A stretch of DNA of 64,000 nucleotides from Blasia pusilla (GCA_050084515.1 CM114271.1:38254001-38318000), one strand, 5' to 3'; shown: positions 9,932-64,000, numbered from the stretch's first letter. Notes: generated by a model not told the origin, from the letters alone. Numbers and translations: made by a program.

Positions 9932-10100
9932 AGTAGGTAGTTCTACATTCCGACTTGTGTCTGTGACATGGATGAGAAGAAGGCGACTAACATGGGGCCA
10001 CATGAGCACCCGGCCTTCTTGCTCTTAGCGTCCGAGAGATGTATGTCATGGTAGGTAGGGATAGATGTAAGTTCCTTAATATTGAGGAACTTACTATTTC

Positions 10101-10422: not shown

Positions 10423-10437
10423 AATATAAGTTCCTCA

Positions 10438-10931
10438 ATATTGAGGAACTTACTATTTTAGGTAAGTACCATTTTCAGTATATGATCGACTTTCTATTTT
10501 TGGTAAGTGGCCCTTGACCTCCTACATCAGGTCAAGAGCCAAGGAGGTGACTTGGGAGAATAGGTTACCATGGAGAGAGCTTGGGAGAGGGGAGGGGTAT
10601 ACCTCAAGGAGAGAGAGCTTGAGAGCTCATTCTCTCTTTGTTGAACCTCTTGGCATGAGGCGGCGGAGCTATGGTCCCTTGCCTTGTGAGTTGTAACCCG
10701 AGCCTCTCATTAGGAGAGTGGGTTTGGTTTGACATGAGAGAGAGTGCACACCTTGGAGAGTTATGGTGTGAGATGGTGTAGAGAGAGATTGGATCTTACT
10801 TTGATTGGAGATATTTTGGTACTTCTTGTCTCGTTGTTTGGATGCCATGAGTTAGCATGGGATCATGCGTGTTTGTGTGTGTGTTTGGTGACAGCGATGT
10901 ATGTTGTGTAGCGATGTGTATACGCATGACA
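10438..10931 (+). repeat. Remainder of A2 (10438-10802) and terminal B2 (10803-10931) of element 1
   Basis: A2 part matches about 2337-2702. B2 GATTGGAGATA...GCATGACA matches inverted B1 (10252-10380). Confidence 0.9.
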
Positions 10932-13870
10932 CATGTCTCACGAGCTCATCTGCACTCCATGCAACAACACTCGTCCCCAACAACGATAAAGAAAACTCTA
11001 CACCATGGGAAGAGACACCCACCTTGGCATGTGTCTCTGTGGGACTATCCGCTATGGGAATGTCCTCCACATGTATGCTCCTCTCCCTGAACCCTCTTGA
11101 GCAACTAACACCACCTGTGAATGCTGCCACCGTGGTCACCGTATCCTCACGTGGTTGACCACCACTGCCCCCTACAAACTGCACCGGTAGATCCCTCACC
11201 CGTCCATCACCTAATCGCCACCCTGACCGATAAGAAATATTCTCCTCCCAAAAATCCAGAATGAACCAAGGGGATACAACACCGTACTCCTTACCAACAC
11301 ATCATATGACTCTGTCAATGTTGTAATCGCCCGATTGCGCACCATGCCACCGTTGCACTATCCGTCTCATGCTCTAGCTGGAGTCTAACCACCAACTCCT
11401 GTCGAGTCATGTAGTGTGTGGGTGATATGCCCCCAATAGAAGTATGTATCTGAAAGGGAAAATGCTCTATGTTGCCTTTCCGTAACCCCAACGCCAACAC
11501 GCCGCCTTCCCTAACATCAAGGGCTGCGCTCTTGAATCAAGTAGGACGCAGTGCGGGTGGTACACCGTACCGGTGGGACTAACCAAGCGAAACAATCCAG
11601 CTTGGTAATCCAAAAACACCACACCTGGTGTGATCATGGCTTGCTTTAGCAATAGCATATCTACCAACTTTTCCGCCACAGCATGCCATGACTGAGTGGG
11701 GGACATCCCGAGCACCTGCTCCGAGGGTAGGTCACCACTTCCTCAACTACCTCTTAGCAAGAGGCAATCACCTCTCCACGCTCACACAACATGGCGGCTA
11801 GTCAAAAAACCTCCTCTAGTTTGACTCCCAACGTCACCAACTCCATGACAGAAAAAAACAGAGTATGGCTCATCCTAGTGGCCACCTCCAACAACGTGGT
11901 AGACATTGGCTCTACCTGAGCCGGCATAGAAGTCGTCTCTCCAACTCCTCGTGGCGTTGATGCACTTGCCTCATCCATGGGCACTACTGGTTTCCGAGGT
12001 ACCATCGATGGTGTATGCAATACCTCCGACAAGGTGAACGACTAGGGAATCCTAGCCTGCCGCCCATCGTCCCCTCTTGTGGATCAATCTCAACCCCACT
12101 TGTCGATGGCTCGGTTACTCTCGCAGCATCTCGAGTCACCACCGGAGCAACCTCAACCTGAGCTGCACTACACAGAAATCCCATACCAGAAAAATCCTCA
12201 ACAGTATTGTGGTAAGATGTGGAGGCTGGCACCACACTAGCTACTCTCAGCTTCGTGCTTGACCTTAGTTGTATCATCGTCATGACAGCAATCCTCTGCT
12301 CCAACTGATCGATGCGAGTAAGGAGCGCTCCATCGGGTGCACGTCCTCCATCTCCTATGACTGGTGATGGAACTCTACCACCAAGATCATCCACTACTCG
12401 ATCTCCACCAACTCTCTCGCCCCCAAGTCCTCTACCTACCTCTAGACGTACATCGCGGCAAAGCATCTATCCCTAGTGTGACCATATCGATGACATTGAT
12501 CACATTGCATCTATGGTAGGGCCATCCTAGATGGCTCCTGAGCAATCGCAGGCGGCCTCAACCCTCTACCATGTTGTGGGTAGTCCCTCTGCCTATGTGG
12601 CCCACCACACGTCCAACAAGCCCACCCTCATCCCTATTGGGTAGCATATGTCGGTACGGGCCGGTGCCTCATCGGCTCACGATAACCCCCTTGCTCTTTG
12701 GGCCCACCGGCCCGCTCCCATGGTCCTCCGATGGAGGACTTCATGGAGTTCCCTCGATACCTCACGCCACTCCATGTCACTCCACTGCCACTGCTCGTAC
12801 TACCCCGTTCTTATGAACCGTGGAAGAACGCCGTGGTGACAACCCTGTCTCACCCCGCTCAAGCGCTCAACTCACCAAGAGTCTCCCACACTCCTCACTA
12901 GCTCACCTACGCTAATGGTAGCCCCATGATGACATACTCGGCCTCACGCACACTCACCACTCGGGCTCACCTTGAGCCTCTCGACTAACTCACCTAAGTC
13001 ACAAACATACTCTCGGATCATACACACGACCCCTACTCGGCAACCGCCGTATAGCCATAAACATGCTACACATACATGGAAACTACACTCGTCACCATCG
13101 CTACACCCATCTAGCACCAACAACTACTCAATACCCATCACTCTCAATGACACAAGATAAGTGCAGGAAAAGGGACTCGAATGGGTAACCTGAACACGAC
13201 TCCCAATCTACTATACGTCAACACTAACTCCTCCATGTCATGCAGCAACCTTCGCGGCACACACTCTCCTCGACCAATATGTCAAACCTCTTCTCAACAG
13301 ATGCGGACGACCCATGTGTCTCTAGCACTACTCGCGCGAACCATCTCTAACTAGGCAACAAATGCCGATCGGCAAAACCCACTCTCTAAATTCCCACTAC
13401 TCTGAGAAAATCGCAACTCCCCCCAACCATGTAGTTCTCCAATGAACGAATACTCTGTTTCGCCCTACCATGTACAATGTCTAACTGCATCTGCTCCCAC
13501 CATATAATCCCGTACTAACTGAGTAGTTGCTGAATCACCACGTCTGGACCCAACCATGTCACCTGACCGCAACTGCGTATTGCCTCTATCCCTTCTGCCA
13601 CCTCCCGGACCGCGGATCTTCTTCCTCCCAAACACCATGGCACCTGGTTGCACTCTTCCCTAACACCGTTCTCTTCCAATCTTCACCTGGCCACTTCTAG
13701 CTCTTGTGGCACGCCGCCCTATGTGGCCAGCCCCACAACCTCGGAGCTGTGTTGCATGCTCTCCCCACTACTCAGCCTTTTCTTCCTCTTCTACCCCTTA
13801 GGACCGCAGCTCTTGCGTGAGCGCGCAAACCTATGCGCCTTGCCCCTAGCCCATGCGCGGCTCCCTGTGC
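10932..13870 (-). mobile_element. Element 3: older, diverged relative of the same gypsy family (leader, partial gag, protease); 5' boundary uncertain
   Basis: VLLDSRAQPLMLGK protease, AQVEVAPVVTRDAA and LPVQFVG...IHVEDIP are homologous to element 1. GTGTTCAGGTTACCCATTC (about 13179-13197, minus) is shared with the element 2 leader (about 54316-54334). Confidence 0.82.
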
Positions 13871-14599
13871 AAGGACCTCCGTGCCAAGGTCCGAGGAGTT
13901 TTTTTATTTTTCTCAGACAATATCCGGGTAGTCTTAAAGTAAGTCAGCATTTGAAAGTTTGAGGTTGGTTGTGGCCAGTAAAAATGAAAATGAGGGTGAA
14001 AAACTGAGTTTTTTTCTGCACTCAGTCAAAATCCGAATTTTGATTATTTCTTCGGATGATTTTCCAACTATCCAAAAAGTTCTTCGGCTAAGTTCTAACT
14101 GATTTCAATAGAATCGGTCAATTTTTTTGGGTCTCTTTCTGTTTTCTCCATTCATTTCTTCTTTAGGGCTTGGTTTATATCTGATTTCTTAACTCCTTCC
14201 AAGTTTGGGAGGTTGGGGGGCAGATTATAGAAACAAACATAACACTCCTCTCTTCTTGCATCCAAACAATTGTGCAAAGATATATTTAAAACTAAAATTC
14301 ACATTTACAAAGGAGATCCTTCGCAAGAGTTGAACCTGGCCATGCCTCCCAACCAGTTAGGACCCAAGGATTTTGCCCCTTAGAATACTTGGAGATTTAA
14401 AGCTCCAAAATTTTCTGAAGGGGCTCTAAATCTAGACAAGAATGTAAACCTCATTTTAGGAAGACAAGTCAATAGAAGTTGCAACGCCTTCAACTTCTAC
14501 TTGAGGAGAGAGATATCTATTTGGGTTAGCATACAGGTCTCTGAAGCTGGCAGAAGTTTTCCACAAAACTATCCTCATAGTCAATAGTAGGGCATTCTA

Positions 14600-29210: not shown

Positions 29211-31975
29211 TCATGGAATATTCTTGGGCCTTATGTCCATGTCATCCACAAGAAGATCCATGTTTGTCTCCGCCATGATTTGAGTGACATGAAGTTGGCA
29301 GGCATTTGGAAAATCTCTTTCCACCTCCCCGCACTTGGCAGCATTGGCTACTTGGCTTGTGGGTGGAGGAATACCCCATTCATCGTTGATCTCATGGAGA
29401 TCTCTTAGAATCTGGCTATCAGAAATTTGATCAATGGGATCCATATCATCCAATGAAGCTAACCCCTGCCGTGTACATTGTCCTCCTCTCCATTCTGCAT
29501 TGATACCCTATTCTTTCCCTTTCTATTTCTTGGTACATATGAAGAAGCAACCTTCAAAAGATTCTTCCTCAAAGAATTAAGGTCATGGGTAGAAGGTCTC
29601 TCAATGTATGAATCTCCAATAATAGGATCACCATCATCACTAGCCAAACCTCCTTTGGATGTCTCATGACAATCCAAAGCACTACCAATGGGGGTAAAGA
29701 AAACATCATGTGTAGAGATATGGGATATACTATCATTTATGCATCCCACTTGGTTATACAAAGTCTCTACAATACCCACAGTGTCAACTACAACATCTCC
29801 TAAATCATCCACTTTATGAGTTCGTGCCATTTCCTCCATATTACCCTCCGACATCTCTGATGGAACTCTGGATGTGCTCGAAATAACTTCTGTATGATGA
29901 TAAATATCACCTCCGGTATTTCCAATCTCACCATCATCCCCACCACCACCACATCCAATTGCTGGAATGCCTTTCTCCAAACTTGCAACACTAAAAGGTA
30001 CTCCGAGACTTCCCTCCACAACTCCAATTGAATGTACAATGTCTACATGCAAGGGAGCAGACTCACCAAGACATTCCCCATCCACAAGAGAGCTACCTTG
30101 CAAATTCACCTCAACATGGGGAGACCCAATGCCATATTCACCACCACACACAATAGCTGGAATGCCTTCCACAACTGCAGCAAGAGAAGGTACTCCAAGG
30201 CCAACCTCTGGTAGTCCAACTGAAAGTAAAGTCTCTATATCCAAGGGATAAGACTCACCAACACGTTTCCCATCCACATGAGAGCTACCCTTCAATATCT
30301 CTCCTTGTGTCAAGTTAATCTCAACATACGGAGACCCAACACCAGCACCATCACACACACTGGCTGGAATACTTTCCATCATTGCACCACTAGAAGATAC
30401 TCCAATAACAACCTCCGGTACTCCAACTGAAAGTAAAGTCTCTTCATGCGAGGGAGGAGACTCACCAACATATTCCACGGCCACATAAGAGCTACCCTTC
30501 AAGATTTCTCCTTGTGGAAGGTTCATCTTGACACATGAAGGGCCAATGGACACATTACAACTTCCGGGTGTTGGAATAGTTTCCTATACATCAGTAGTAC
30601 ATGGTGGAAATTCTAGACCAACCTGGTCTTCAACCATCACACAAGGGGCCTCAATAGGGGAAGAAGAAGGGGCAGTACCCGATATTCTTTTTGCTCCCTT
30701 CTTCAAGGACTTGGATACATGTGGAAGCCCAACCTTGGAGCAAGATTCACCTCCCATAGATTTGGTGTGCTCTCTGACCTTTCTAACTTCTTCCACATGC
30801 GTCGAAACAATATGGTCCTCCCTACTCTCACCAAAATCTTCTACACTCCTTGCTGTAAACTTCTCAACAATAGGCTTAGAAGCCAACTTACTTCGCCTCT
30901 TTGGGCGCAAAACCTGAAAACCACTAATATCATCACATTCATCTCCATGAGAGGTGGGAGGTGGTTTGCTAGAGCTACTCCCTATTGTAGATTTATGTAC
31001 ATTCCTCCTAGACCGATCTAAATCTACATCCCTCTTCTCCCTTGGGACATACTTGGAAGCTCTTTCTTCACAAACCTCTTTGACCTCCTCCAAGTTTCTT
31101 CCCTCCAACCATTCATTCCATTGCTGTTTAGCCATGAAATCGGAGTACTTGGCTTGATCCCTTTCAAGCCAAACCATTGGGTTCTGTTTCTTACGAGAAA
31201 TCCAAGCTTGTGTCTCCTTCAATTGCTTAGATCTCTCATCTGAAAAAATGGCAAGAAGCACACCCAAACACACACCCCCTTTCTTCTCCTCTACTCCCCA
31301 AAGTTTCTTCACCAACTCCAAATGAACAAAGTAATTCTTCCCCCTCCCAATCTGGTCTACAGAACCAGGTTTACTAGCTCTCTCAATGGCAACCAAGCAT
31401 GCTGAGACTGTCATATCCATCGTTAAATTGCTTTCACCGCACTTTCAAACTTTCACAAGACACGTGTTGTACTTTTCTCTATCCAATAAGTCATCCCAAT
31501 CTTGGATACCAAGGCACTTGGGGAGATCACACTCCATTAAAGCAAGCAATGCTGGCTTCTTGAACAAGTGTGGTATGACAGGATCTCGTTCCATTGTCAA
31601 CCATGTCTCAGACCAATGTTGTCTAAATCTGTATAATTTTTCCCTCTTCATCTTTTCTAAACGCCCAATAGCATCTCCTGATTTTCTCATCAAATCTTTC
31701 TCTCTTTGCTTCTCACTAATGTTCCTCTTACGACCCTTCACAGGGTCGTCAGGATGCCTATCGGCATTTTCCAAAGGTACTTAGTAACTTGGGTGCAAGT
31801 GAGGGTGCTTCTTAGTCAAGTGCTGATTGCACTTTGTTTTGTTCTTTGCAGAGTAAATACGACTACAAACTAGACACATCCACTTTGTGCCATCATGCAA
31901 ATACCTCCAATAGGTATTTTCCCCCAATGGAACGCCACAAACTACCCGGGTGGAAACTGAGGTCGGGGTAGCCAT
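29211..31975 (-). pseudogene. Long broken ORF: N-terminal C2H2/BED-like zinc finger, charged middle region, three repeats of about 70 aa; probable transposon accessory gene
   Basis: WMCLVCSRIYSAKNKTKCNQHLTKKH. Consecutive same-strand ORFs of 109, 278, 364 and 80 aa. Repeat NLxQGEILKGSSxVxxxxxGESxPxxxxxLLSVGxPEV. Confidence 0.55.
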
Positions 31976-33790: not shown

Positions 33791-34042
<252 letters not shown>

Positions 34043-35973
34043 TGGATCTTGTAAAAGTTAGTAGTAAAAGGCACGGTAGTTGGGGGAGAAAATCATAAGT
34101 ACCGCACCTAGTGAGGACTTCATATGGACTCTATGGCTATAGATCACACAGTGCAAAGGCATCTTAAAAAAACCTGTCATGTGCAATAGTGACGGAACTA
34201 TAATGAACGGCAAAGAATAATAAAAAACTGACGAGAGTGAAGATTCGAGCATACCTCAACAGCGGAAAGTATTCCAGATGCACCTTTGTGATTAAAATGA
34301 TTCAAAGCTACTTTGCTCTTATCAAGTTTGCCACCACGTTCACCTTCATTTGAGAGCCACCAAATCAAGAGAATCATTCTAGAAAAAGACATACGTAATC
34401 TTCTCCCGCCTTGCCTCCAACACGAATGGTATTGCTACGATCCCTGCATATTTGAGCAAACTTAGAGATGGAAATTATTCCAGATGAACCTCCGCGATTG
34501 AGATGATTTAGATTCGCCTTTTCGTAATCCAGATTGCCTCTGAACGCCACCGGGTTCGCCTTTCTTTCAGAGCCGCCAAAACGTGCGAATCACACTTGAA
34601 AAGCACCGTAGAAAAATAGTGACCTAATCTTCTCCCGCCCTACCTCTAACATGAACGATAGACCTTGCATCTCTGCCCGATCTCCCTCGGAAGATATTCC
34701 AACAAGGTGAAGAGAAATACAGAGTGAAGGTAGCGGTTCAGGTGCCCCGAGTCTCCCTTACAGAATCACGCTCACTCCCTGCTCGCCAATTGCAGAATTG
34801 GGGCATCAATCTCGAAACTCAAGAAGGTCATTCAAAGCTAACCGACGGTTGGATCTAAACAAGCCCAAATCTTCACCGTTCATCCTTATGACCCTACTAT
34901 TCGTCACACAAAGAAGGTGGGGATCGACTTTGGAGGCAGCTCATTGGTGGCTGCTAGGATGGAGCCTCCATCTAAAAATTGGAGCGTGGATAAATGCCAA
35001 AGGAAGCCCAGAAATCCCCACACTTCTTTCGCCAAACCGCGCACGCCATTCACATGCCCATGGGTGGGATGGTTACATGGGTGATGGGTGGGATGGGTAC
35101 ATGGGTGCGAGCCGACCCGCCGCGGATATCCAACCCACATGGCGGATATATAGGGCTCGGCCGGAACTACTCTTCTGGCCTCTTTGGGGAGTGGGTGATA
35201 GCGGGTCAGGGGTGGGATGACGGGTGGGTAGGGGGCGTAGGGGGGGTTCCAGAGGTTTTGGAGTTCCAGAACCTAGAGCCAATAAAGGCTCTGAGTTCTG
35301 AGACTACAGATAGCCTCCCAACTTTCGGTACGCATCCCTATGGACATGACCCATCCCTTACTCCTTCTTCCCCAACTTCCTTGGAACCCCTTGTACGTAG
35401 CTATACATGGTGACTTATTAATGCACTCCTTCCTCCCTTCATCCTGGGTGCGGCGCGGTTGCGCGACCTGCGACCTTGCCACTTTGACTCCTTGACCGTG
35501 GCTATACCAAACAGCCTCCTCTATACGACTGATCACGTATGTGTGCCCTAACTCAAGCCTAACCTAGTGAGCTACGACTTAACACTAGTCTCTAGCCGAC
35601 TTTATTTGAAAACCCCCCGGGGGCTGCAAGGCCTATTCAACACTCTTTTTCTCCTTATCCCGACACGCACTTCTCACCTGACAGAAACACAATCGAGAAC
35701 ATTCGCCGCTACATTCTATACTACCCTCTGCTGTTGCCCTCTGTCAACCCGCACCAATATGATCTGAGAAAAATGGGTAGCGCTTCCGCGCACAACCTTA
35801 CGAATATAAAAATGACAAACAAACGCCACACACGCGTCTCCAGGGGCTCCCCACTTAGGCAACTCACTTGCCTACCTACAACCAACGAACTCCTTGCCCC
35901 CTCGCATCTTTCTCATGTAAAATTAGAGTAATAAAACTCCACTCATGAATCTACATCGGCATATCGAACCACA

Positions 35974-50000: not shown

Positions 50001-52606
50001 CTAGTGTTTAGCTTGTGCCATGTACGAGAGTGAAAAAAAATTTTATGTTGTACACAAATTCAAAAAAAAAAATCTTGTTGCGTAGTTGCCATATATTAAG
50101 TAAACATGTGTTTGCAAATCAAGTAGCCACTCTCTAATAATAATATAGATTGGATGTGGAAATAGAAGAATGCAAAACATCTCCCATCTAACACCATAGA
50201 TTGAAAGGAATCTCCCCCCCCCACCAACACCTCTATTCCTGTTGTGTAAATAACCCGTAATTCATGTCCTTGCTTTTGAGCCCCAAAAGCCCCTTTCTAA
50301 TGTAGAAACTAGTGTTCAACCTGTGCCATGCACGAGAGTGAAAAACTAACCATGTTGTACAAAAATTCCAAAAAAATGTTCTTGCTGCCTAGTTGCCGCA
50401 TCGCGAGCAGACATGTGTTTGCAAATCAAGAAGGTACTCTCCAATAATAATATAGACTAGTAAGATGCATGTGCAATGCACAAGTGCATTAGGGAACAAT
50501 ACGCATGGAAGAGGGAATAATACACAAACGTGGGTTTGACTTTTTTTGAATATTCTTATTTTAGTCAAGTATTTCTTTATACACCATATTTTGTGTGTAG
50601 TCACCTTCCTCATTTGAGTGTTCATCGCTTCCTATGGTAACGTGGATGGAACTTCTCTTCCCTACTCTAGATAATGCTACATACAATTGACCATGAGAAA
50701 ATACGAGAGTAGGCAAGTAAATACCAACCTTTTGCAAAGTTTGACCTTGAGACTTATTAGTAGTCATAGCAAAAGTTGGGCGAATAGGGAATTGAAACCT
50801 ACGTAAATCAAATGCCAAACCAGAATCGGATGCAATCAATGGATACGTGGAATAAAAATTCGATCTCCAACATTTTTTCCAGTGATGATTTCTGCATCTA
50901 TGCAATGTTGCATGAATCCACGAATCACCAATCTCGTCCTGTTTGCTTGTCCATATGATACGTTCATCTTTCGTAAGAGCATGACTGTTGCACCAATTTT
51001 TAAACACAAACGATGCGGAGGTAGTCTACAAGGCAAGCATGTGTTCAAAAATTTAGTTGGATAGATAGAACTCATCCTCTGATTTGGAATAGAGTCGACA
51101 CTGTGGTAAATATGCTCATGTACAAAAGATATAATAAATCAGTGAGAAAAAGTAATAGTAGTACAAAAAATTCCCAAAAGAAGGTCCCAAGCGGAAAATA
51201 TATGCACATTAGAAGGATTACCTGTCTTGGTAACCGAGACATAACGTTTGTATAAATGTCATCAACATCTTTATTTCTTGGAGTCAAAATAGTTGTATCT
51301 CTCAAGAAACCAATGTCATGGAAGTGGCTAGTAGATATGCTATAGATCAATTCAATAAGATTGCATATCTTATAACTGTTAGTAATAATTTCATATGGTA
51401 ATCGTATAAAGTCTTCTCCCAAATGAGGGTGCAAAGGTACATGACCCTCTCCCACTTCCAATAACCAATCAGCAAAAGCTTGTTGTTCAACATGCAAATG
51501 ACCTTCCAAACATTAAACTCGCATGTTTGTTGTCAACTTCATGAACTTTACATAAGACCAAAGAGATGGTCTCTTTATAGTGGCTTGTATGATTTGGGGT
51601 CAATCCCCATGATGAACAACAGGCAACACTTGACGTAAGTCACCACCAAATATTATAAGTTTTCTGCCAAATTGTAGTTATCGTAGATCATCTGAAACCA
51701 CTCCCATAATATCTTGTATAAGTACGATTAACTGCCTCAAATGCATGACGATGAGTTATAGGTGCTTCATCCCATGTAATGAGTATTGCGTCCCGGATTA
51801 AGCGTGCTCCATCACTTTCAACTCATAAACTATAAATGATAGAAGGAAGAAAATTAGAATTGTAACACTTGAACTAATTAAATTTTATGTGTTCATAGAA
51901 TTGCATGTAAGGTAGCTAATGACACTTACTTGCATATAGAACTCTCATGAAGATTGATGGGGATCTTGAAATGCGAATGTGCAGTTGGTCCTCCATCTAA
52001 TAATATAGCAGCTATTCCGGATGATGCTACAACCAATGTTATACCTCTTGCACTCCTTATGCTTGCAAGGAGAAGATTATCTAAAAATGTCTTTCCTGTT
52101 CCCCCCGGACCATCAATGAATTTTTTTTTTGAAGATGGTGGAGCATTCATGCATATTTGATCCAGCTTCTCATGTATAGCATCCCAAATAATACCTTGTC
52201 CTTCATTCAAACATGCTTCTCCCAATTGCACTTGCTCAAATAATTCTTCTATATCATATGATAACTCTTGTTCCTCCAAATATGAATGTGAATGAAAACT
52301 TTGGAAATTAGCTTGGGGCATGTTAGTAAAGTCAGATAGTCTCTTTCCTTGATCTTATAAATAATAATGAACTTCCAACAATGCATTGTTAGTGACAACA
52401 TCATCAACATGAAGATTAGGAATTCTTGTTTTTTGCAATGAAAGAGTTTCAAAAAAATTCCAAATTATCGTTAGTTTGTTGAATGCACAAAAGAAGAGAT
52501 ATACTATTAGGAAAAAAATGAATGTTGTACAGAGTGGCACTAATGAATTCTCACATGTCGTCGTTCATATAAGAGATCTTCTAATAGTGGAAGCAAGAAT
52601 TGACTC
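50001..52606 (-). mobile_element. Helitron 3' part: degenerate intron-containing PIF1-family helicase and two tandem 3' termini
   Basis: FIDGPGGTGKTF, VASSGIAAILLDGGPTAHSHFKIP, WDEAP, GGDLRQVLPVV, QFPIRPTFAMTTNKSQGQTL..VFSHGQLYVALSRV. Hairpin (GTGCATGGCAC, with a 1-mismatch variant) plus CTAG|T ends at 50309 and 50001. Confidence 0.93.
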
Positions 52607-53120
52607 TGTCACGACTAGTAGGATAGATTGGTGGGATCTAGCAGAGCGTCTGCACGAATAGTGGAGGACAGGCCCAAGATGTCGAGGACGACCTGTTGAG
52701 GCCAGGGGAAACCTGAGAGAGCAAGTTTCCCCTTCGTTTCGGCTCATTTGGAGCCATATAGAGAAACTTACTATTTCGGATAAGTTTCCATGTTGGGGAT
52801 AGTTGACTTTCCACTTTGGGAAGTGGCACTTGACCCGCTATAGTAGATCAAGAGCCAAGGAGGTGACCTGCGAGCATAGGTTACCATTGAGAGGGCTTGG
52901 GAGAGGGAAGGGGGAAAACCTCCAAGAGAGAGAGCTTGAGAGCCCATTCTCTCTTTGTTGAACCTCTTAGCATAAGGCGGCGGAGCTATGGTCCCTTGCC
53001 TTATGAGTGTAACCCAAGCCTCTCATTAGGAGAGTGGGTTTGGTTTGACATGAGAGAGAGTGCACACCTTTGAGAGCTATGGTGTGAGATGGTGTAGAGA
53101 GAGATTGGATCTTTCTTTTA
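52607..53120 (+). repeat. Terminal repeat A1 of element 2
   Basis: Matches A2 at 63288-63800. Followed by ACAATGAGAGATTGAG, a degenerate self-priming PBS. Confidence 0.93.
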
Positions 53121-54640
53121 CAATGAGAGATTGAGAGATCTTCATGGGGGAGCTCCTAGGTCACTCGCTGTTTTTGCAGGTTGGGGACCGTGTACTCCGT
53201 TCAGCGGCTCATGGGAGTGCTCACCGGAGCAAGGGCTACTTTGATTGTTCTTTGCATTTGCCGATTTTTCGTGTGGAAGAGTGGCGCGCGGAAGCGCTGC
53301 CCAATTTCAGATAGGGATTGATTATGGGGGCGGGTCGCCCCCTGCTTCCGCTCTTGGGAGCACCATGTAGCTTTCTGATTTGTATTTTTACAGGTTTTAC
53401 ATTTTTTTGGAGAAATCAGCGCGGAAGCGCTGCCAAATTTTGTGTAGGAGAAAGAGACATTTGGCTTTACAACAATCCCTGTCAGTTTTTACTTGAATGT
53501 TCAATTCTAAATATATTTTGACATTGTTGTAGATCGCAAAGTTGTGCATGCTGTGCAACAAACAATGTGCAATTTGGAGTTTTGAGCAAAAAGTTATGGT
53601 CAATCTTGAAAAATTGCCATTACTAGGCGATTTTTAGGGTTAAATTGTTCAAACCCTAAACCAACCGCCACACCGGCAGTGGCTGTCGCCGTCATAGTCA
53701 CCGGTCAATGGTCAACCATCATTGTCAATGGTTCACCATCCATTGTCCACCCTTTGGTTGCCATTGCCGCCATTACGGAATGGAGGGTCTTCCACGACGT
53801 TCGTTGATTCTCTAACTTGCGTCGCCACCACGTACTTTGTTTAGGCCGCCACCGTCATCGCAATTTTGTCATCAACTAGTGATGGAAGATGACCTACGGT
53901 TATGGTGTTTGAGTTTGATTTCATGCTGCTATGTTATGATTGGTAGCCGCTCGATGAAGATCGAGTACCGTGCCGTGACGCCTGTAGCCGCAACGCCGCC
54001 GATTGCTGCGCTGTGCCGCTCGTGGCCCAACCACACTGTCTCGATCGTGGAACCGCTCCTTCACTAAGGAGCAGAGTGTGTGAATTTTTGATTGAGGAGG
54101 GTATGCTGCCGAGTGCCGCTCCCCATTCCCGAGTGCCGTGTTGTTTGTAGCCGTTCCGTGCCCCCAGTGCCGCACAGGACCGCTCGACCTACACCGCACA
54201 TCGAGGAGGTTGAGTAGCGTCAGTACGAGAGGAGTACGACTTGCTAATTGGAGGAGTTCTCTTCACGACCAAGTTGGGGTCGAGATTTGCAGTTGCTGAG
54301 GAGCGACATCGATATGTGTTCAGGTTACCCATTCTGGTCCTTTACACTGCACGTGTGAGGGATTCTGGGATTTGGGTAGTTTATTTGGGGATATTGGGTT
54401 GTGTGGATGTTGAGAGCATCATTCATGTATGTGGTTTAGGGGACATAGACCTGTGTGAGATGTCCGAAGTTGAGGGTAGGTTATCGATGAGATGATAGCC
54501 TCGTCGATTTGCCGCACCATGCCGCGTGTTGTCGCACGTTACACGTCTCGGGGAGGGAGAGTGTAGATTGAGTGCCGCATGTTTGGGATAAGTGATTGAG
54601 GGATAACTCATGAGGTTGAGAGTGATCGGGTGAGAGGGGC

Positions 54641-57600
54641 ATGAGGGTCATCACGGCGTTCGTTCGGGACTTTGAGAGGCGAGGTGGTGAACCGGAGAGT
54701 AGCTCTAGAGGTTTTACGCGGAGTGGCGCGAGGTTCCAAGGGTCTCCACGTGAGGGACCACCTCGACCTCCTTCTGTGTCATCGTCAGACAAGGGGGAGG
54801 GTGTAGAGGAGTTTGTGAGCACATTACCACACATTGTGAGTGGTCATACCAGTTGGGCATACGAGATGGACGACCGGGGTAGAGGACCGCGTACGTTTTC
54901 AGGTACAGTAGGCACGATTGAGTTGCACAATTTCATAGCATAGTTTAGGAGTTGGTGCGACTCCCAGCGGGCCAAGAACTCTAGAGAGTTCAACCCGTTT
55001 ACAGCATGGAACCGTATGTTCCAGCATTTAGAGGGGGCACCCATGGACGATTACCATGAGTTCTCTCAGAGATATGCACTTGAGATCGAGGCTTGGAGGC
55101 TCTACTATGACCCACATTATGTGTCATGGACGGATCCGTTCCCAGATGAGGAGGAGGAGTCATGAGAGGCTACTTCCTCTTCCACTAGTGACATTTTAGG
55201 AGGGTTCACTCGCACTAGAGCAGTTGCACCGTCTAGTCGGGTTCGTCCTAGATTCAACCCTGTGGTTGAGTTCTTTGCTGAGTTGAGGTCGAGCTATCAG
55301 CGGGTACGGACGGAGAAGTTGCGGAGCATCCACCACTTCCAGAGGTGCCATGGTGAGAGTTTGCGTGAGGCTTACACTCGCTTGCGCCAATTGATCAACG
55401 TCACTCAAGGCGTGAGAGAGGCTCAGGCTATCCAATCATGGTACGCGATGCTGGACCGGACCATACGGACACGAGTGCGGGAGGGGGTGCTTCTTATGAA
55501 CACCTCCCCTACGTTGAGAGATGTTTTTAGGACCGCCGAGAACATTGAGCACAACATGGCGGAGGAGAGCGTAGCCACCATGGGTTCTAGGCGAGAGCAG
55601 CCACGATTGGTTACACCACATGTGCAACAACGTGGACTCCGAGATAGGTCGATTGTGGCACCACGAGCTCAGGGAGGATACCACGAGGCCGTGCCACAGA
55701 GACGTGCGAGCTCACCAGCAACCGCCTACTATTACTTGTTGGTCATGTGATGGAGCCCATCATCAACGCGATTGCACTTATCAGGGTCATGGATGTGTGC
55801 CTTAACATGGAGGACGAGATGGTGCTACGCCAGGAGGTTATCAGTGTAACTATTGTTAGAGGTATGGTCATACACGCGCCAGGTGTTTCAATTTACATCT
55901 TGAGTTACGTCCGGACCGAGGGCCAGAGAGGGCACCAGAGTGAGTAGCCGGTCTAGGTGGGCTAGAGATCGTGTACCAGGTGGTCCCGTAGGGGGACGAG
56001 GAGCTGGAGTTGCTCGACAGGGTGGTGGAGCTGCCCGTGGAGGAGGTAGAATACCACCATCTAGACGCGCCGAGGGAGACGCCGGACGTGAGGCTGGGAT
56101 GGCTGCTCAGATACAACAACTACAGGAGCAGATTACCGCTATGGCATTGAGGTTACCCGATGCCGGATCCATGGCATCGACATCATATGGAGCAGCCAGA
56201 GATATGGAGGATCCTGGTTGGATGTGCGGGCTTGCCCAGATGGAGGCCGCCGCAGTTGTGACGTGTGGAGCAACCGGAGAGTTGGATCCACAACGAGGGG
56301 AAGCCAAAAAATAGACTAGGCTTCCTCAGTCTTTCACATTGTCCGAAGCGATGAGGACCCCATCTGTCACAACCCTCATAACCAAACAACACCAAATAGG
56401 CGCCAAGCGAAACATCAAAACTCAGAGGAACTCACGTTGCGAGGTTTGCGCTTTGGAGAGGCGTTTGGATAAGTCTCTTGGAAAAGTCTAAGAGACAAAA
56501 CGCGGAATAGAGTTGTGTGTTTCATACGTTAGTGGTCGCGACCAAGAAATCTAGAACAAACGCGAGCCAAGACTTGAGATGAGTTGAGTCTTGGGAGGTT
56601 GGTTGCCAAAGAGGTGAGAACCAGTTTGGAACACGACTAGCGTTTGGGAGAATCTGATTGTGTGTAGGACCATAACGTTGAGCTCCAAGATGCGTTTGGG
56701 ACAAATAAGGGTGCGTTGGAAAGCTGATCTTAAGACACTTCTAATGCACTAAAGATATCAGAAAACACATAAGTACAGGCTAAATATTGGCCAAAAACGA
56801 TTGAGACATCAACTGGATTGAGGGCCAATTGGAGAGGCCCGTGTGTCTTTCCCTAAATGTAGGGGGCCCCCGGAGATCCCTAGAAGTACTAGTAAGGTAG
56901 GAGTCTCTCCGAGATGTCTCGGGAAATGAATCCCCACTTTGGGCGCCAAACGGCATTTCAGAGGCACGGGATGGAACGGGAGTTTGGCGTGGGAACTCAA
57001 AACCCAAACCTGATCCAAGGGAGTGGACTTTGTATGCCACATTTGGATCCCAACCCGAGATTCACTTTGTGTGAGTCTTGATGAGGAACTCATTGGATGT
57101 CCATCGGACAGTTGGAACCGCTAGGCGCGAAACGCCGTTTCAGGTTCCTGAACCGACTAGAAAGTCTGCCCCAAGTCTTTCGAGATTTTCCCGTGTTGTA
57201 AACCGCGAAACTAGGAAGGTTCAGCTTGATGAGAGTCCGAGACGAGAACTCGGAAAGTAATCCCGCTGATTGATCCAAGACCCGACTAACCAAAGTGCGT
57301 GTTTGGATGCAGATCAGCGTTGAGAGCGTGACCTACTGAACGCACGCTTCCGCAACAAACAAGATTAACGTTCAAGGAGAGTAGGCGTACGACACCATCG
57401 ATGGGTCCTCATCAAAGTTCCTAGAGAGTTGGTGATGTTGTTGGTGTGCAAGCATGAAGGGCGATGGGAGAAGAGAGTGCGACGACTCCTATTGTTGATG
57501 CTCAGGAGAGGCATGTGTCGAGCACGTTGTTGGGGGCGGCCACCACTGTGTATTGCACTTATTTCTTTTCTGCTTCCGATGTTATGACATTGGGGGGTAC

Positions 57601-58260
57601 GCCCGCCAAGGCTTTTCGGCTGACCGCTTCACTATATGAGCGCGGAGTTGGAGTTCTTGCATCACGTTTAGAGGTGATTGCAGAGGAGGTGATGGTCCTA
57701 CCCTTGGAGCGGATGCTCGGACCGTCCACGTCAGATTCATAGTAGGCTGCGGCTGCTAGGATGGTGGAGATGCCCGCTAGACCCGCGATAGAGCGTGCCA
57801 TGGCTTCTCTTGGTGCTGTGTTGCTGGATAACTGAGGAGAGGTCTTCCAGTTGGTGAGTCCCGGAGGTAGAGCTTTTAGTCCGCAGCGCATCTTGTTGGA
57901 TTCAATAGCGCAACCCTTGATGTTGGGGAAAGCGTCATTAAGAGGATTGGGCTTGACGAGAGCCAATGTGGAGTGTTGTCCATTCCGAATACAGACATTC
58001 TTGGATGGAGCGAGTACCACACAGTATATCACCTGACAAGAGGTCGTGGTGAGGATTCGCCCAAGACATCCTACAGATGAGTCTGTGGTGCGAGCCAAGG
58101 CAATAGTGATTGATGTAGAGTCCAACGACGTCTTGGTTGGTGGAGCAATATTATACCTAATGGGGTTTTCCTTGGATTACTGGGAGGAGTCAACGTCCTA
58201 CAGACCAAGATGGTAGTCAAGTGATGGGTGCCTTAGCTCATTACCCGTTCGATTCACAGG
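54641..58260 (+). pseudogene. gag and protease of element 2, interrupted by a solo LTR
   Basis: Colinear with element 1 2719-5220. Knuckles CWSCDGAHHQRDC and CNYC*RYGHTRARC (55845-55886); protease RILLDSIAQ. Confidence 0.85.
56365..57394. mobile_element. 1030-bp solo LTR (or non-coding LTR-type insertion) nested in element 2
   Basis: TGTCAC...CGACA ends, perfect 5-bp TSD CCATC (56360-56364 / 57395-57399), and absent at the homologous site of element 1 (about 4390). Confidence 0.9.
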
Positions 58261-58612
58261 TGCAGTGATTGAGCGACGGCCAGGAGAGGTGGCAAGCTTA
58301 ACAACATTTAGCAGTGTCATCACTTGGCCTAGTGATTTGATTGAGGGACATGTCCATGCAGAGGATACTCCCGTTCCTGACATTTCTATGGATAGGAGTG
58401 TTATGGTAGCCGCATCATTCCGTGGAGGAGAGGTGCCGTTGTGGGGCTCGATTGAGGAGCTTCGACGATTGGCAGATGAGCACGTGCATACCACGTGGAG
58501 CGAGGCGTTTGCATCGGAGCGTGACCGGTCTGAGGAACCCGAGGTAGTAGGGAGTGCTATGATGACACCCTTGGATACCACATCCATTGTGTGGTGTGTC
58601 TCGGAGGAGGGT

Positions 58613-59530
58613 ATTTGAGTGTTAGATCTCTTTGGAGGGATTAGCACCGGGTTAGCTGCTGTTTTGCAGACATGAGTGCGAGTGCAGCAGTACTTGTATG
58701 TGGAGAGTGATGATGTTGGGAAGCGCGTCTCACTACTACATATGGCATAGTTATGCCTACATTTTCCCGACTTATTTTCTGCGTCCGCGGTACAAGGGTA
58801 TTAGAGTTCCCTACCGAGGGATATTTCGTTGCTGGGGACGCAGGACTTAGAGCGGGTAGGGACCATTGATTTGGTTATTGCCGATTGGCCATGTCAGGGC
58901 CAATCAAGTGCTGGACGAGGCAGTGGGTTGGCTGACACTCGGTCCAGGTTGTTTTGGGAGACGTTGAGGATCTTACGGCAGTTGCAAGAGCACCAATCTC
59001 ATTCTCCAGCCTACATTCTGGAGAATGTGCCGATCTTAGGAGACTCCAGGTCACGGATGGTGACGAGTGCTCATCAGGTGCGTGCCTGGATTGGCCCAGC
59101 TGTGTCCTTGGATGTGGCAAGTGTAGGTTCTAGAGCCCATCGCCCGCGTATATGGTGGACCAACTTGGTGCCGCATGCGGTGTTACGGAGGGTGTATGCG
59201 AGAGTGGAGCACCCCTCCCATTTGTTAGTGGATTCCATTCTAGACCCAGGTCGTTGATCACAGGAAATGAGGGACGATGATCGACCATCGTTGACTATGG
59301 TCAACATGGTAGGCAGGCCGTGGGCAGCCTTGCCCACGTTTGTGAGTTTTCCCACTTCCTATGCATACAAGGAGGCCGGTCCTTGCTTGGTTTGGGATGA
59401 CCACGTTCAGTGGTTGGTGGAGCCCAACGCCGAAGAGAGAGAGCGAGCGATGGGATTTCCCACAGGAGTGACGGAAATATTGTCAGTTTCAAAGGCATCA
59501 CGACGCCATGTCTTGGGTCAGGGATGGACC
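58613..59530 (+). pseudogene. DNMT3-like methyltransferase domain, element 2
   Basis: VLDLFGGISTG, IDLVIADWPCQGQS, YILENV, AHRPRIWWTNL, ERERAMGFP, RRHVLGQ. Confidence 0.92.
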
Positions 59531-59901
59531 TGAACTGCTTGACATGGATTCTCAGCTTGGAAGTGGCTGAGCAGCGCCATATGAGATCGCGACAGATCAC
59601 AGCGGTTGCGTTGGTGAGACCTATGCCCACCGAGACGGTGGAGGCAGTGGCTAGGGGCGAGACCCTAGGAGATCTACACACCAGGGGAGATCAGGAGAGA
59701 CACCCTTGGACTTCTTGAGATGTTTTGCAGGTACGCCAGGAGATGATAGCCACAGCATCGAGCGTGGTTCCAGGCACTGCACGTGGAGGAGATCAGAGTT
59801 TGCAATTGGTTGTAGGAGAGCGGCCGAGTGTTGTTGTTCGAGACGGGGTTGCACCATAGCAACCACCGATATCCGCGCCGGAGAGTCCTACCGTAGTCAC
59901 G

Positions 59902-62900
59902 ATGGAGACTTGGGAGCCATATATGGGCCCTAAGTTGACAAGAGGAGAGTGGCGCCGGATACATCAGTTCCTCAGGAGTTATAGGAGCTGCTTTGCGTTT
60001 AGCATGGAGGATTTGGATACTCTTAAGGGACCGGATATCCGCATTGAGTTGTCGAGTGATACGCCAATCTTCCGACGACGCTACAGGTACAGTGATATGG
60101 AGAGGGCTCTGATTGAGAGTAGGAGCCATGATTTGGTCGGAGCAGGATTAGTGGAGATGTCACATGGGGAGTATGCATCTGCCGCTATCATGCCCGCCAA
60201 GAAGGATGTGCATGGCAACTGGACGGATAGGCGGATGTGTGGGGATTATCGACCTATCAATCGGTAGACAAAGTCTTATAGGTATGCCATGCCCACTCCT
60301 GAGGATATCTTTGATGCGATTGGTCACGCAAAGATCTTCAGTTCATTGGATTTGTGAGCCGGATACCATCAACTGCCTATCAGATTGGAGGACAGGTAGA
60401 AGACGGCATTTTGGGGCATCAATCCTCACGGAAAGGATTGCTTGTACCAGTGGCGATTCTTACCATTTGGGTTAAAGAACGCCCCGGCTGAGTTTCAGAG
60501 GGTCATGGATAGGATCTTGGCTGATCAAGATTTTACTAGGTGTTATATTGATGGCATCGTAGTCTTTAGCGCCAAAGTTGAGGAGCATGAGGGACATCAA
60601 GAGGAGGTGTTTTGATGCTTGCAATTACATGGGCTGAAGCTACATCCAGGCAAGTGCAAGTTCTTCTACGACCAGATTGAGTACTTGGGTCATACGATAT
60701 ACCCAGGGGGCCTTGGTGTTCAGCAGACCAAGATAGAGGCTATCTCACTCATTCCACGCCCTACAGATGTGAGCCGTGTTCGCGCATTCATGTGATTGGC
60801 AAACTTCTATTGGCGGTACGTCAAGGAATTCAATTCGATTGTGAAGCCGCTAACATTGCTGACCAATGTGGATCACGAGTGGCACTGGGGGGATGAGCAG
60901 ATGAGCATTTCACTTGCTCAAGGACAGGTTGACGTCCGCGCCCATCTTAAGGAGACCGATCAGGGGGCGTCCTTTCCAGTTGCACACAGATTGGAGCATG
61001 TTGGGGCTTGGAGTGGTGCTCACCCAGCATCATGATGAGGGTAGAGAGTTCGTGATGGCTTACGCTAGCCGCTCAAACAATGCTGCAGAGGCGAAGTACA
61101 ACTCGTATGAGGGTGAGTGCTTGGGTGCAGTGTGGGCTGTCGCACATTTCAGGTGTTACTTATTCGGAAACCCCTTTACCATCATCATTGATCATCAACC
61201 ACTGAAGAGGTTGATGGAGTCCGAAAAGCTTACAGGGAAGCTTGCGAGATGGGCTCTATTGTTGCAAGAGTATATTTTCATGTGGTACATAGACCTGGGA
61301 CGCTCAACCAGGATGCATATGGGTTGAGTCGTAACCCATGCCGAGTCAACAAGATGCAACAGGATCTCGATGGCATGGAGAGAGTGATGAGGAGTCAGTG
61401 CCAGGATGGCACGCGTCAACCTATTTAGGCATGTTGGCTATGAAGAGCCAAAGTGTGGAAACTTCCATGGCGAGGTCTAGTGGAGAGTCCTTGGATCCCG
61501 AGGCTAGTGAGGAGATGACATGTGGCCAAGATATTCATGATTATGGAGTAGTCTTGGAGTACCTTCGTACTGACAGCGTTGCGAGCACCGTGGGTGCTAG
61601 AGAGTGGGATCGGATCCTACAACGGGCTAGACGGTTCCGTTGGGAGGGGACACATGTTTTGAGGAATTGAGAGGATGGTAGAGTACGCGTAGCGCCGCAT
61701 CCTTCACAGAGAGCACGACTAGTGCAGCATGCCCACAAGGATTTTGGTCACTTTGGGGTGAAAGCGGAGGTACAGCTTGCTCCAGATTCAGTATTGGTGG
61801 CGAGGCATGCAGATTGACGTCTAGCAGTTTGTTGCCAGGTGCATGGTGTGTGATCGAGTTTGAGCATCGTTCAATGCTCCGACTCCACAATTGCATCCAT
61901 TACCGGTCATGGGCTTAGGATATAGATGGAGTTTGGATTTTGCAGGACCTTTGCCTTTGACGGAGCGTCATAGTCATTATGTGTTGATGATGGTCAAGTA
62001 CTTCTCGAAGTGGATCGAGTCGGTTGCATTGCCTGACAAAGCGAGTGAGGGAGTAGCTTATGCCTTCCTTGATAGGGTGCTGAGTCATTATGGTGCAACG
62101 GCTGAGGTGTTGACAGACCAGAGTATCGAGTTTCACGGTGAGTTCCATACCTTGTGTGATCAGGCATTGATCGACCACTGTACAACTTTGCGAGATCATC
62201 CTGAGGCGGATGGATTAGCAGAGAGAGTTGTGCAGACGATGAACAGGGGTTTACGCAAGTATGGCTTGCAGAGAGGTCACCTAAGAGATTGGGACCTCCA
62301 GTTGCCATGGTTGGCGATGGGATACAGATTCAGTAGGCAGGCATCCTTAGCGTCTTTTTCACCGTACTTGCTACTTTATGGCCAAGAGCCAGATTTACCT
62401 GCGGCCATTAGTCGAGATGCTGATGAGGTGCCGGACCTTGATGACCCAGATGTATGGATGCGAGCATGTTCTTAGAGGGCTGAGTTGTTTTGGAGAATGA
62501 TGCCCATGGCGTTCGAGAACTTGGCAATTGTGTAGCATCGGGATACGTTGAGGTATGCGACTATTCGGGATGGTGGTTATCGACCAACTATCTGGAGGTT
62601 TCATCAAGGAGATTATGTCTACTTGCAGCAGACGGCACCGATGACGTTGGATGTGAGTGCAAGGCGCACTATCCTAAGAGTGCGTGATGTTTTGCCATTT
62701 GGTGTTCTCTTGCTGGAGGGACGCGATGGTATGGTATGGAAGGACCATATGTGTAATTGTGCACCATGTCACCTTCCTAACATTAATGGCACAGTAGATC
62801 TGAGCTCAGCAATAGTTCCTGCACGCTTGCGTTGTATGTTGTGTGGTTTTGCTCGTGGTGCGGCCACAATTCTAGTCTGCGATGGATGTTCGAGAGGTTG

Positions 62901-62973
62901 GCATATGGCATGTCTGACGCCACCTCACACTAGGGTTCCTCGAGGACGATGGATGTATCCCAGATATACATAG
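59902..62973 (+). pseudogene. pol: RT, RNase H, integrase and PHD finger of element 2
   Basis: RMCGDYRPIN; YIDG (mutated YIDD); FQLHTDWS..YSYEGECL; WSLDF/VLTDQ/GLAER; PHD at 62833-62970 with last Cys pair mutated to Tyr. Many stops. Confidence 0.95.
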
Positions 62974-63149
62974 AGGAGATACTAGGTAGGTTTTGATTCC
63001 GAATTTTTCTATGACATGGATGACAGGAAGCGACTAACGATGGGGCCACATGAGCACCCGGCCTTTTTGCTCTTAGTGTCCTAGAGATGTATGTCGTGGT
63101 AGGTAGGGATAGATGGCTATCTGGAGTTAGAGGGACCTAACCACCAACT

Positions 63150-63910
63150 AGGAGGGCGATTGGAGATATTTTGATACTTCTCCCTGTGTGTATGGATGCC
63201 ATGAGTTAGCATGGGATCGTCTGTGTTTGTGTGTGTGTTCGATGACAGTGATGTATGTTATATAGCGATGTGTATGCGCACAAAAATTGTCATGATTGTT
63301 AGGATAGATTGGTGGGATCTAGCAGAGTGTCTACACGAGTAGTGGAGGACATGCCCAAGAGGTCGACGATGACTTGTTGAGGCCCCGAGAAACCTGAGAG
63401 AGCAGGTTTCCCCTTCGTTTTGGCTCATTTGGAGCCATATAGAGAAACTTACTATTTCGGATAAGTTTCCATATTGGGGATAGTTGACTTTCTACTTTTG
63501 GAAGTGGCACTTGACCCGCTACAGTAGGTCAAGAGCCAAGGAGGTGACCTGCGAGCATAGGTTACCGTTGAGAGGGCTTGGGAGAGGGAAGGGGGTATAC
63601 CTCCAAGAGAGAGAGCTTGAGAGCTCATTCTCTCTTTGTTGAACCTCTCGGCATAAGGCGGCGGAGTTATGGTCCCTTGCCTTGTGAGTGTAACCCAAGC
63701 CTCTCAATAGGAGAGTGGGTTTGGTTTGACATGAGAGAGAGTGCACACCTTTGAGAGCTATGGTGTGAGATGGTATAGAGAGAAATTGGATCTTATTTTA
63801 TTGGAGATATTTTGGTACTTCTCGCCTCTGTATATGGATGTTATGAGTTAGCATGGGATCGTTTGTGTTTTTGTGTGTGTTCGATGACAACGATGTGTAT
63901 GCGCACAACA
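63150..63910 (+). repeat. 3' end of element 2: PPT-like AGGAGGGC (63150-63157), B1 (63159-63285), 2-nt spacer, A2 (63288-63800), B2 (63800-63910)
   Basis: B1 and B2 both read ATTGGAGATATTTTG.TACTTCTC...GATGTGTATGCGCACAA(C/A)A; A2 matches A1. Confidence 0.93.
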
Positions 63911-64000
63911 ACTCCATAGTGTTGCAGGTTGAGCAGATGTGTTGTAGGCTAGAATAATTGCAAATAAACGGTGCAGTGCAGAACCTATACGGATCATAAA
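63911..64000 (-). mobile_element. Continuation of the Helitron RepHel gene beyond element 2 (runs off the window)
   Basis: Minus frame LHRLFAIILAYNTSAQPATLW resembles the LRxLFxxIL....P..LW segment of Helitron RepHel proteins and joins in frame with 52606. Confidence 0.8.

Follow-up and report, generated by a model that had tools for sequence, protein, structure and literature searches.

How does a retrotransposon that encodes a conventional DDE integrase come to be bounded by split direct repeats instead of paired long terminal repeats (LTRs)? The question is raised by a 64,000-nt stretch of Blasia pusilla DNA (GCA_050084515.1 CM114271.1:38254001-38318000; hereafter the window, with all coordinates counted from its first letter), in which an earlier note made from the sequence alone had recognized two related elements, element 1 (2188-10931) and element 2 (52607-63910), and had proposed for both an arrangement of two repeats, A and B, in the order A-internal-B-A-B. 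Our analysis upholds this order in element 2 and in relatives from metagenome contigs, and finds that the four repeat borders are of two kinds, one set by reverse transcription and the other by integration. It is on this division that the explanation we favor is built.

Split repeats around a Gypsy-type polyprotein

The repeat maps of both elements were obtained by self-comparison of the window and direct reading of its sequence, and for element 2 they give the order A1-internal-B1-A2-B2, all on the plus strand. A1 (52607-53119), which by our reading corresponds to the unique 3' (U3) part plus the repeat (R) region, matches 63288-63800, with 93% identity between A1 and A2 over 514 bp. Toward the other end lie B1 (63158-63285), the 2-nt spacer AT (63286-63287), A2 (63288-63799) and B2 (63800-63910), which ends in ...GCGCACAACA; the boundary between B1 and A2 is thereby an internal CA-nn-TG junction. 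B1 and B2 are 90% identical over 97 bp, and the A1/A2 and B1/B2 pairs are similarly diverged within each copy of the element. The termini are TGTCAC at the start and ACAACA at 63910, and the target site duplication ACTC stands directly before the former (52603-52606) and directly after the latter (63911-63914). The claimed order was thus borne out by the A1/A2 and B1/B2 matches, and the claimed TG...CA ends with a 4-bp duplication by a perfect ACTC on both sides.

Both copies are riddled with stops and frameshifts. The plus strand of element 2 was translated with X at stops, and six frames were scanned against Pfam, giving the plus-strand domain order DNA_methylase (PF00145), RVT_1, RT_RNaseH, Integrase_H2C2, rve and PHD, with no domain matches on the minus strand. 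A weak gag-like open frame (55166-55747; Retrotrans_gag, E=0.008, below the curated cut-off) precedes a Dnmt3-like C5 cytosine methyltransferase domain interrupted by in-frame stops (58655-59692; PF00145), followed by the reverse transcriptase (60226-60699; RVT_1, E=3e-27), RNase H (60899-61273; RT_RNaseH/RT_RNaseH_2, E=3e-31), the integrase H2C2 zinc domain with the rve core (61753-62187; PF17921, E=3e-6; PF00665, E=3e-7 to 6e-9) and, at the integrase C-terminus, a PHD finger (62833-62952; PF00628). Open frames of at least 100 aa in element 1 contain the same domains. The methyltransferase and the PHD finger had both been overlooked by the earlier note, which had rightly recognized an HHCC-DDE integrase. 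Its further statement that a tyrosine recombinase is lacking held under the profile search it had proposed: no Phage_integrase match was found in the six frames of element 2 at E<=0.1, nor in the Pfam domains of 80 reverse transcriptase and 31 methyltransferase relatives among the matches listed. No aspartic protease family was found in the six-frame scan of element 2 or in the metagenome copies described below; PF13650 is present in one relative protein (P0096).

Among the matches listed, the closest named relatives of the reverse transcriptase-RNase H part come from the liverworts Calypogeia fissa (73%) and Marchantia polymorpha (71%), with remoter ones from Sphagnum and green algae, and the methyltransferase part gives the same taxonomic picture, its liverwort relatives being 56-62% identical. 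In some of the M. polymorpha relatives, PF00145 and the reverse transcriptase occur in one protein. All 29 of 29 solved-structure matches of the methyltransferase are DNMT3A, DNMT3B or DNMT3C, and motifs that we take to be FxGxG-, PCQ- and ENV-like are visible by eye in the broken frame. Because of these Pfam domains, the DNMT3-only structure matches and the liverwort relatives, both copies are, as judged from their sequence, decayed streptophyte Ty3/gypsy elements of the 'Gypsy-DNMT3' kind from a bryophyte-like host. The order reverse transcriptase-RNase H-integrase (rve), the TG...CA ends with a duplication in the 4-6 bp range, and a primer-binding site by the 5' repeat together with a polypurine tract by the 3' repeat are all as in Ty3/gypsy elements; the identical repeats that these carry at both ends are absent, A standing alone at the start and B-A-B at the end. 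With the DIRS order, the elements share the split repeats; the encoded tyrosine recombinase of that order was not found in the scans above, and target site duplications, which members of that order are not known to make, are present. The reverse transcriptases of PAT, Ngaro and TOC elements are themselves gypsy-like.

This kind of element is already known from a figure legend. The Fig. 4c legend of de Mendoza et al. 2018 (PMC5890265) describes KnitGypsy-Dnmt3 of the charophyte Klebsormidium nitens as having DIRS-like repeats and typical Gypsy domains, and a 2026 preprint names 'streptophytes (Gypsy-DNMT3)' only (bioRxiv 10.64898/2026.05.21.726589). Likened by that description, KnitGypsy-Dnmt3 and the window elements have in common the two features that define Gypsy-DNMT3: a Gypsy-type Pol enclosing a Dnmt3-like methyltransferase, and the DIRS-like A-coding-B-A-B order. 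They differ in host, which is a charophyte for KnitGypsy-Dnmt3, whereas the closest named relatives of the window copies among the matches listed are liverwort and moss; no Klebsormidium protein is among the reverse transcriptase or methyltransferase matches listed. The portions of the 2018 main text that concern this element are silent on duplications, on end sequences, on a primer site and on any mechanism (PMC5890265). The earlier note had stated that it knew of no Ty3/gypsy lineage with such an architecture and had named prior description of the family as grounds for giving that claim up; the legend is such a description. No further treatment of the split repeats of KnitGypsy or Gypsy-DNMT3 was found in the literature searched, and the 2018 supplements may hold more. 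The window copies are new bryophyte-type members of this kind. What is new beyond them is the border anatomy and the hypothesis of an internal attachment junction, for which no treatment was found in the literature searched.

Repeat order across the family

To gather relatives from metagenome contigs, 14 related polyproteins were aligned and used as the query. Of the 267 stretches that matched, 171 could be confirmed, and 80 loci were retained; the metagenome copies have the same domains as the window elements. A scan of the 80 loci for five motifs (A start, A end, B start, B end and polypurine block), allowing at most 4 mismatches, matched 27 of them, and duplicates of the same locus were merged by their flanks before independent ends were counted. 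Left out of the census were three loci with single weak motif matches (L001, L029, L056), two with only an A end, at the contig start (L003, L004), and three that represent a more distant family or have tandem- or circular-looking terminal overlaps (L018, L019, L053).

Half of the 14 independent metagenome 3' ends are B-A-B (L005, L024, L037, L038, L054, L071 and L036, the last cut in A2 by the contig end), and the other seven consist of a single B followed by unrelated flank (L007, L010, L011, L012, L025, L052, L068); with the window copies included, the totals are 9 B-A-B and 7 single-B ends. At the opposite end, A adjoins unrelated DNA in 12 of 12 independent metagenome 5' ends, none of which starts A-B-A, and B precedes A in 0 of 14 independent 5' ends (12 metagenome and 2 window). 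The earlier note had suggested such a collection for all genomic copies, and on the metagenome relatives its outcome, with recurrent B-A-B 3' ends and not one canonical 5' end, shows the split-repeat layout to be a family trait. A perfect 4-bp duplication flanks 7 of 9 complete copies (ACTC in element 2, TCTC in L005, CATA in L054, AATC in L071, TGTG in L010 and TACA in both L011 and L012), and 3 of 4 bases match in element 1 and L052.

These counts bear directly on whether the layout could have arisen after integration from ordinary LTR copies, whether through a solo LTR inserted in nested or tandem fashion, through unequal crossing-over or through an error of assembly. That 3' regions of this type do become rearranged is shown by the inversion in element 1 described below, and element 1 is moreover nested in another element. 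However, the 9 independent B-A-B 3' ends come from different assemblies and share the same order and 2-nt spacer, the duplications lie just outside the A start and the B2 end, and canonical 5' ends are missing throughout; we regard a post-integration origin as close to refuted and accord it very little probability. Integration in trans by the tyrosine recombinase of another element, with the encoded integrase irrelevant to the layout, appears just as improbable. It would be in keeping with the fact that, elements of the present kind aside, only tyrosine-recombinase retroelements are known to have split direct repeats, but it is opposed by the perfect duplications at TG...CA ends in 7 of 9 complete copies and by the conserved B end and A start alongside an rve integrase kept in all relatives. 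Tyrosine-recombinase retroelements are not known to make target site duplications.

The two 3' forms also suggest that A-internal-B might be the primary integration product, the extra A-B stemming from a separate directional event such as a tailed or concatemeric intermediate with an extra right LTR. The equal share of single-B ends among the independent metagenome 3' ends, and the 4-bp duplications that such copies have of their own, are consistent with this, as is the interleaving of the two forms on a star-like tree of the last 900 nt with 4 label changes, a number not exceeded in 119-132 of 500 shuffles. Even so, we consider this improbable: no reverse-transcription route was derived that places B after A without joining the termini of the complementary DNA (cDNA), and replication cannot proceed through A-internal-B, which would leave the 3' end of its RNA without U3 and R.

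Other repeat arrangements were encountered among the same loci. L066 (16731-21644) and L045 (5694-10547) contain a second, short element of about 4.9 kb with a 360-bp repeat pair and a tandem duplication of about 180 bp directly 5' of the 3' copy, an arrangement distinct from A-internal-B-A-B. Long terminal overlaps occur in a more distant relative, where L019 286-3803 equals 9133-12650 (99.9%) and L053 1-123 equals 9049-9171; these reflect either tandem or circular DNA, or an assembly that cycled through identical LTRs.

Two kinds of repeat border and a possible internal integrase site

At the first of the two borders set by reverse transcription, the A end abuts a 16-nt sequence complementary to a site within A. 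In element 1, this primer-binding site of self-priming type, ACAAAGAGAGAATGAG (2703-2718, plus strand), pairs at 16 of 16 positions with 2527-2542 in A1, and a TATA-like box stands about 30 nt upstream of the paired site in A (TATAC at 2497-2501 in A1 of element 1, plus strand). Element 2 retains a decayed primer-binding-like site, ACAATGAGAGATTGAG (53120-53135, plus strand), directly 3' of A1, with 4 mismatches to the complement of A position 336; its intact counterpart is that of element 1. The corresponding 16-mer of the metagenome family has an entirely different sequence and is complementary to A position 161-164; L012, L042, L054, L071 and L052 show 1-4 mismatches, and L012 has paired changes on both sides of the complementarity. 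Besides element 1, six more of the 12 tested 5' ends show 1-4 mismatches at one conserved A position, and in element 1, L012, L042, L054 and L071, none of 143 control 16-mers is as good. A primer site of transfer RNA (tRNA) type was considered and rejected, as the sequence after A begins ACAAAG or CTCAAAG, not TGG. A primer-binding site by the LTR that is complementary to the transcript start, and not to a tRNA, is shared with Tf1/sushi and Tcn1 elements, which have ordinary paired LTRs, whereas the window elements have split repeats; no chromodomain was found in the window elements, and a PHD finger is in its place. Self-priming has been predicted for 12% of plant elements, according to the part of PMC6317226 consulted.

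At the second such border, B starts 1-3 nt after a block ending in a run of 6-7 G (GGACCTAACCACCARCTAGGGGGG), which is conserved between the window and the metagenome family. The block lies directly before B in element 1 and in element 2 (GGACCTAACCACCAACTAGGAGGGC, 63133-63157, plus strand). Of the 19 metagenome loci that include a 3' end, 18 show the same placement; the exception, L024, has both the block and the B end, its B-start motif falling beyond the 4-mismatch limit.

The remaining borders, A start (TGTCAYGA...) and B end (...GTATNCGCAYGACA), form the ends of the integrated copies, and it is these that the duplications flank. They meet again within the element, 2 nt apart, to give the CA-nn-TG junction, and in 10 of 10 aligned junctions a variable spacer (AT, GC, TC or AC) separates a conserved B end from a conserved A start. 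Between families with protein identities of at most 57%, conservation extends over about 40 nt at the B end and about 10 nt at the A start. The A2/B2 joint behaves differently from one insertion to the next: it is precise in L054, L071 and L038 and shows substitutions only in L037 and L024, element 2 lacks 1 nt there relative to element 1, and L005 has 2 extra B-start bases together with a filler of 18 nt, part of which is a copy of the A end close by. From such sequences, the joint looks end-joined.

A coherent route can be proposed from this anatomy. Because A ends at the primer site and B starts just past the polypurine tract, ordinary reverse transcription would yield a linear cDNA (B-nn-A)-PBS-internal-PPT-(B-nn-A), where PBS and PPT denote primer-binding site and polypurine tract, and the true LTR would be B+A. 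Since the integrated ends, TG of A and CA of B, fall at the junction inside this LTR, the provirus A-PBS-internal-PPT-B-nn-A-B would be a circular permutation of the cDNA, opened at the CA-nn-TG of the LTR by the primer site. The integrase attachment site would be that internal junction, by analogy with the palindromic LTR-LTR junction that integrase cleaves in vitro in foamy virus and HIV-1, as far as described in the parts of PMC1180852 and PMC1905944 at hand. In the 2-LTR circles of those viruses, as in our proposal, a DDE enzyme acts on abutted CA...TG ends a few bases apart (PMC1180852, PMC1905944); the retroviral junction, however, is formed only by circularization and its use in vivo is debated, whereas here it would be built into every LTR and inherited via RNA. 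Were both half-sites of the left-LTR junction used, the cDNA termini (A end and B start) would have to be ligated, either before integration in a 2-LTR circle or after it by gap repair, and the A2/B2 joint would represent these ligated termini, formed anew at each insertion. A-internal-B-A-B would then be the smallest provirus with both integrase sites and with U3 and R at the transcript 3' end. Single-B copies might be due to use of the left half-site in one LTR and the right half-site in the other, to a 1-LTR circle, or to later B1 x B2 deletion. A bias toward the left LTR could, as a conjecture, follow from early integrase loading, the left LTR being the first to become double-stranded. Comparable action of DDE enzymes on abutted ends is known from the circle junctions of bacterial IS3 and IS30.

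That the integrase opens the internal junction, with end-joining of the cDNA termini, seems to us about as likely as not. The broader proposition is that integrase attachment in this lineage has shifted away from the ends of the cDNA to a palindromic CA-nn-TG junction in mid-LTR, such that every provirus is circularly permuted and the cDNA termini are joined in each round; this is plausible to us but falls a little short of an even chance. Routes to the A/B joint by reverse transcription only (nick crossing, rolling circle, extra strand transfers and plus-strand strong-stop fold-back) were also derived on paper and rejected, as they never give B after A.

Read data were examined by aligning reads and contigs to the element at 80% likeness. 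Three DNA runs, labelled organism A and B, contributed 106,590, 11,645 and 33,684 aligned contigs, and the family is very abundant in them; joints in these contigs, with B-like sequence after the polypurine block and after the A end, fit the layout. Among the indexed runs listed as containing the element, none was an RNA run. One stranded RNA run, when aligned, gave 3,573 reads, 2,094 of them less than 90% alike and 1 at least 99% alike. As these reads are mostly less than 90% alike, they establish transcription for relatives and not for this copy. The first mate is about tenfold commoner on the minus strand, which, given usual stranded libraries, means sense transcripts, and depth is continuous across the internal region, the polypurine block, B1 and A2. 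At B2, RNA depth falls to 7% of the previous bin; an RNA 3' end was considered here and rejected, because the same fall in the three DNA runs (to 2-6%) marks it as a mapping effect of B reads preferring B1. No places where many molecules begin or end were found in the aligned reads. RNA reads of the organism A label align only over the polypurine block (63123-63159), beyond which they continue into GTTGTGGTACAC..., a B start resembling the one in the metagenome family; the label therefore includes a more actively transcribed sister subfamily.

Several points tell against opening of the internal junction by the integrase. Every step beyond the repeat anatomy is one that we infer from sequence, all copies found are broken, and the RNA reads cannot place the transcript 3' end. 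Complementarity at the primer site is absent in 5 of 12 5' ends (L005, L008, L010, L015, L038), whose best matches lie elsewhere with 5-7 mismatches; we attribute this to decay. A symmetric 2-LTR-circle model predicts A-B-A-internal-B equally, and 0 such copies stand against 9 independent B-A-B 3' ends, a count on which random cutting of a 2-LTR circle at either junction was rejected in its plain form; the left-LTR bias has to be assumed, as conjecture. This asymmetry is better served by replication of DIRS/PAT-like type with a DDE integrase acting last, which explains A-internal-B-A-B only, and never A-B-A-internal-B, without extra assumptions. In such a scheme, the transcript spans nearly the whole element, no canonical two-LTR linear cDNA is made, the B1-A2 junction closes a genome-length circle as template or splint, and the integrase opens the closure junction. 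The repeat order is indeed identical to the A1-B1-A2-B2 of PAT, Ngaro and TOC elements, where, as far as described in the part of PMC4157794 consulted, the internal B1-A2 junction likewise corresponds to the joined element ends, and the sense RNA reads span the internal region, B1 and A2 without a dip. PAT, Ngaro and TOC elements, however, encode a tyrosine recombinase, whereas the window elements have an H2C2-rve integrase, are flanked by 4-bp duplications, and show a primer site and a polypurine tract where their repeats begin or end. The DIRS/PAT-like route ignores this primer site (A end) and polypurine tract (B start), which are hallmarks of LTR-type priming; the A2/B2 joint differs between insertions, unexpectedly for a joint templated by RNA; and no priming mechanism is known for such a cDNA. 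We rank this route second and hold it to be unlikely.

With the two kinds of border told apart (primer site and polypurine tract; TG/CA with duplications), what had been an unexplained remark in a legend becomes a mechanism open to test. If the internal-junction reading is true, these elements would be the DDE-integrase counterpart of the PAT/Ngaro strategy, split direct repeats would follow from the site at which the DNA is opened and not from the kind of recombinase, and integrase cleavage of an LTR-LTR-type junction would be obligatory in vivo and not a test-tube curiosity. The family offers a natural system for asking whether retroviral-type integrases can act on internal abutted ends and how tyrosine-recombinase retroelements came by the same layout. 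Its own Dnmt3-like methyltransferase bears on the interplay of transposon and host methylation. Standard LTR finders, which assume paired LTRs, would mis-call or miss this abundant bryophyte family.

Element 1, element-specific segments and flanking sequence

Element 1 is 84-90% identical to element 2 and has A1 at 2188-2702, a methyltransferase fragment at 5687-6025 (PF00145, E=1.5e-8), reverse transcriptase and RNase H fragments at 7070-8666 (Pfam matches) and an open frame with the PHD finger at 9311-9928, all on the plus strand. The earlier note had presented it as an independent case of the identical layout. This holds for A1, the 3' part of A2 (10438-10802) and B2 (10803-10931, ending in ...CGCATGACA), which are direct and on the plus strand, but not for B1 and the A2 start, which are inverted, so that the actual order is A-internal-[inverted B1/A2 start]-A2 rest-B2. 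The inverted block, border palindromes included, extends over 10067-10453 (minus strand) and comprises the reverse complement of A 1-149 (10101-10249), the spacer (10250-10251), and the reverse complements of B1 (10252-10380) and of the polypurine block (10381-10405), with the second border palindrome at 10423-10453; 10094-10428 is the reverse complement of the sequence preceding B1, B1 and the first ~155 bp of A2 in element 2. The 26-nt palindrome TAAGTTCCTYAATATTGAGGAACTTA found at both borders is new and built from A positions ~147-168, and the inversion looks like the outcome of template switching at a hairpin in A. At ~330 bp, it mimics the 'internal complementary region' of DIRS1.

The 4-mers flanking element 1 are CGTG (2184-2187) and CATG (10932-10935). 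The earlier note had further held that excision of the elements restores both interrupted host open frames. This was not sustained: the joined flanks of element 2 give only a 78-aa open frame, and at element 1 neither half of the 217-aa minus-strand frame matches a Pfam family. To the right of element 1 lies an older, diverged fragment of a related retroelement (10971-13393, minus strand), collinear by tblastx with element 2 53891-58841 at 37-75% protein identity (40-50% in most segments), whose own ends were not found. Because this right flank is an older related copy, element 1 sits inside a transposon and not in a host gene. No Pfam family was found in the region 11000-14502, nor in two long open frames at 29459-31444.

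Two segments of element 2, both on the plus strand, are missing from element 1. The first, a leader or 5' coding segment at 53138-54694 that appears as a gap in the alignment of the two elements, contains a 22-nt direct repeat at 53286 and 53419; as 13158-13393 of the older fragment matches 53891-54355 of element 2 at the protein level, this segment is family sequence deleted in element 1. The second, at 56365-57390, is absent from the older fragment also and is specific to element 2. Apart from the match of the first to the older fragment, neither nucleotide nor translated similarity to the metagenome loci or to the rest of the window was found for the two segments. To the left of element 2, at a distance of 250 bp, an open frame with a PIF1-like helicase domain (51926-52354, minus strand, E=3.5e-23) may be part of a Helitron-type element. 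Elsewhere in the window, a long (TC)n tract at 1516-1597 and a (GA)n tract at 33940-34050 stand in mutually inverse orientation.

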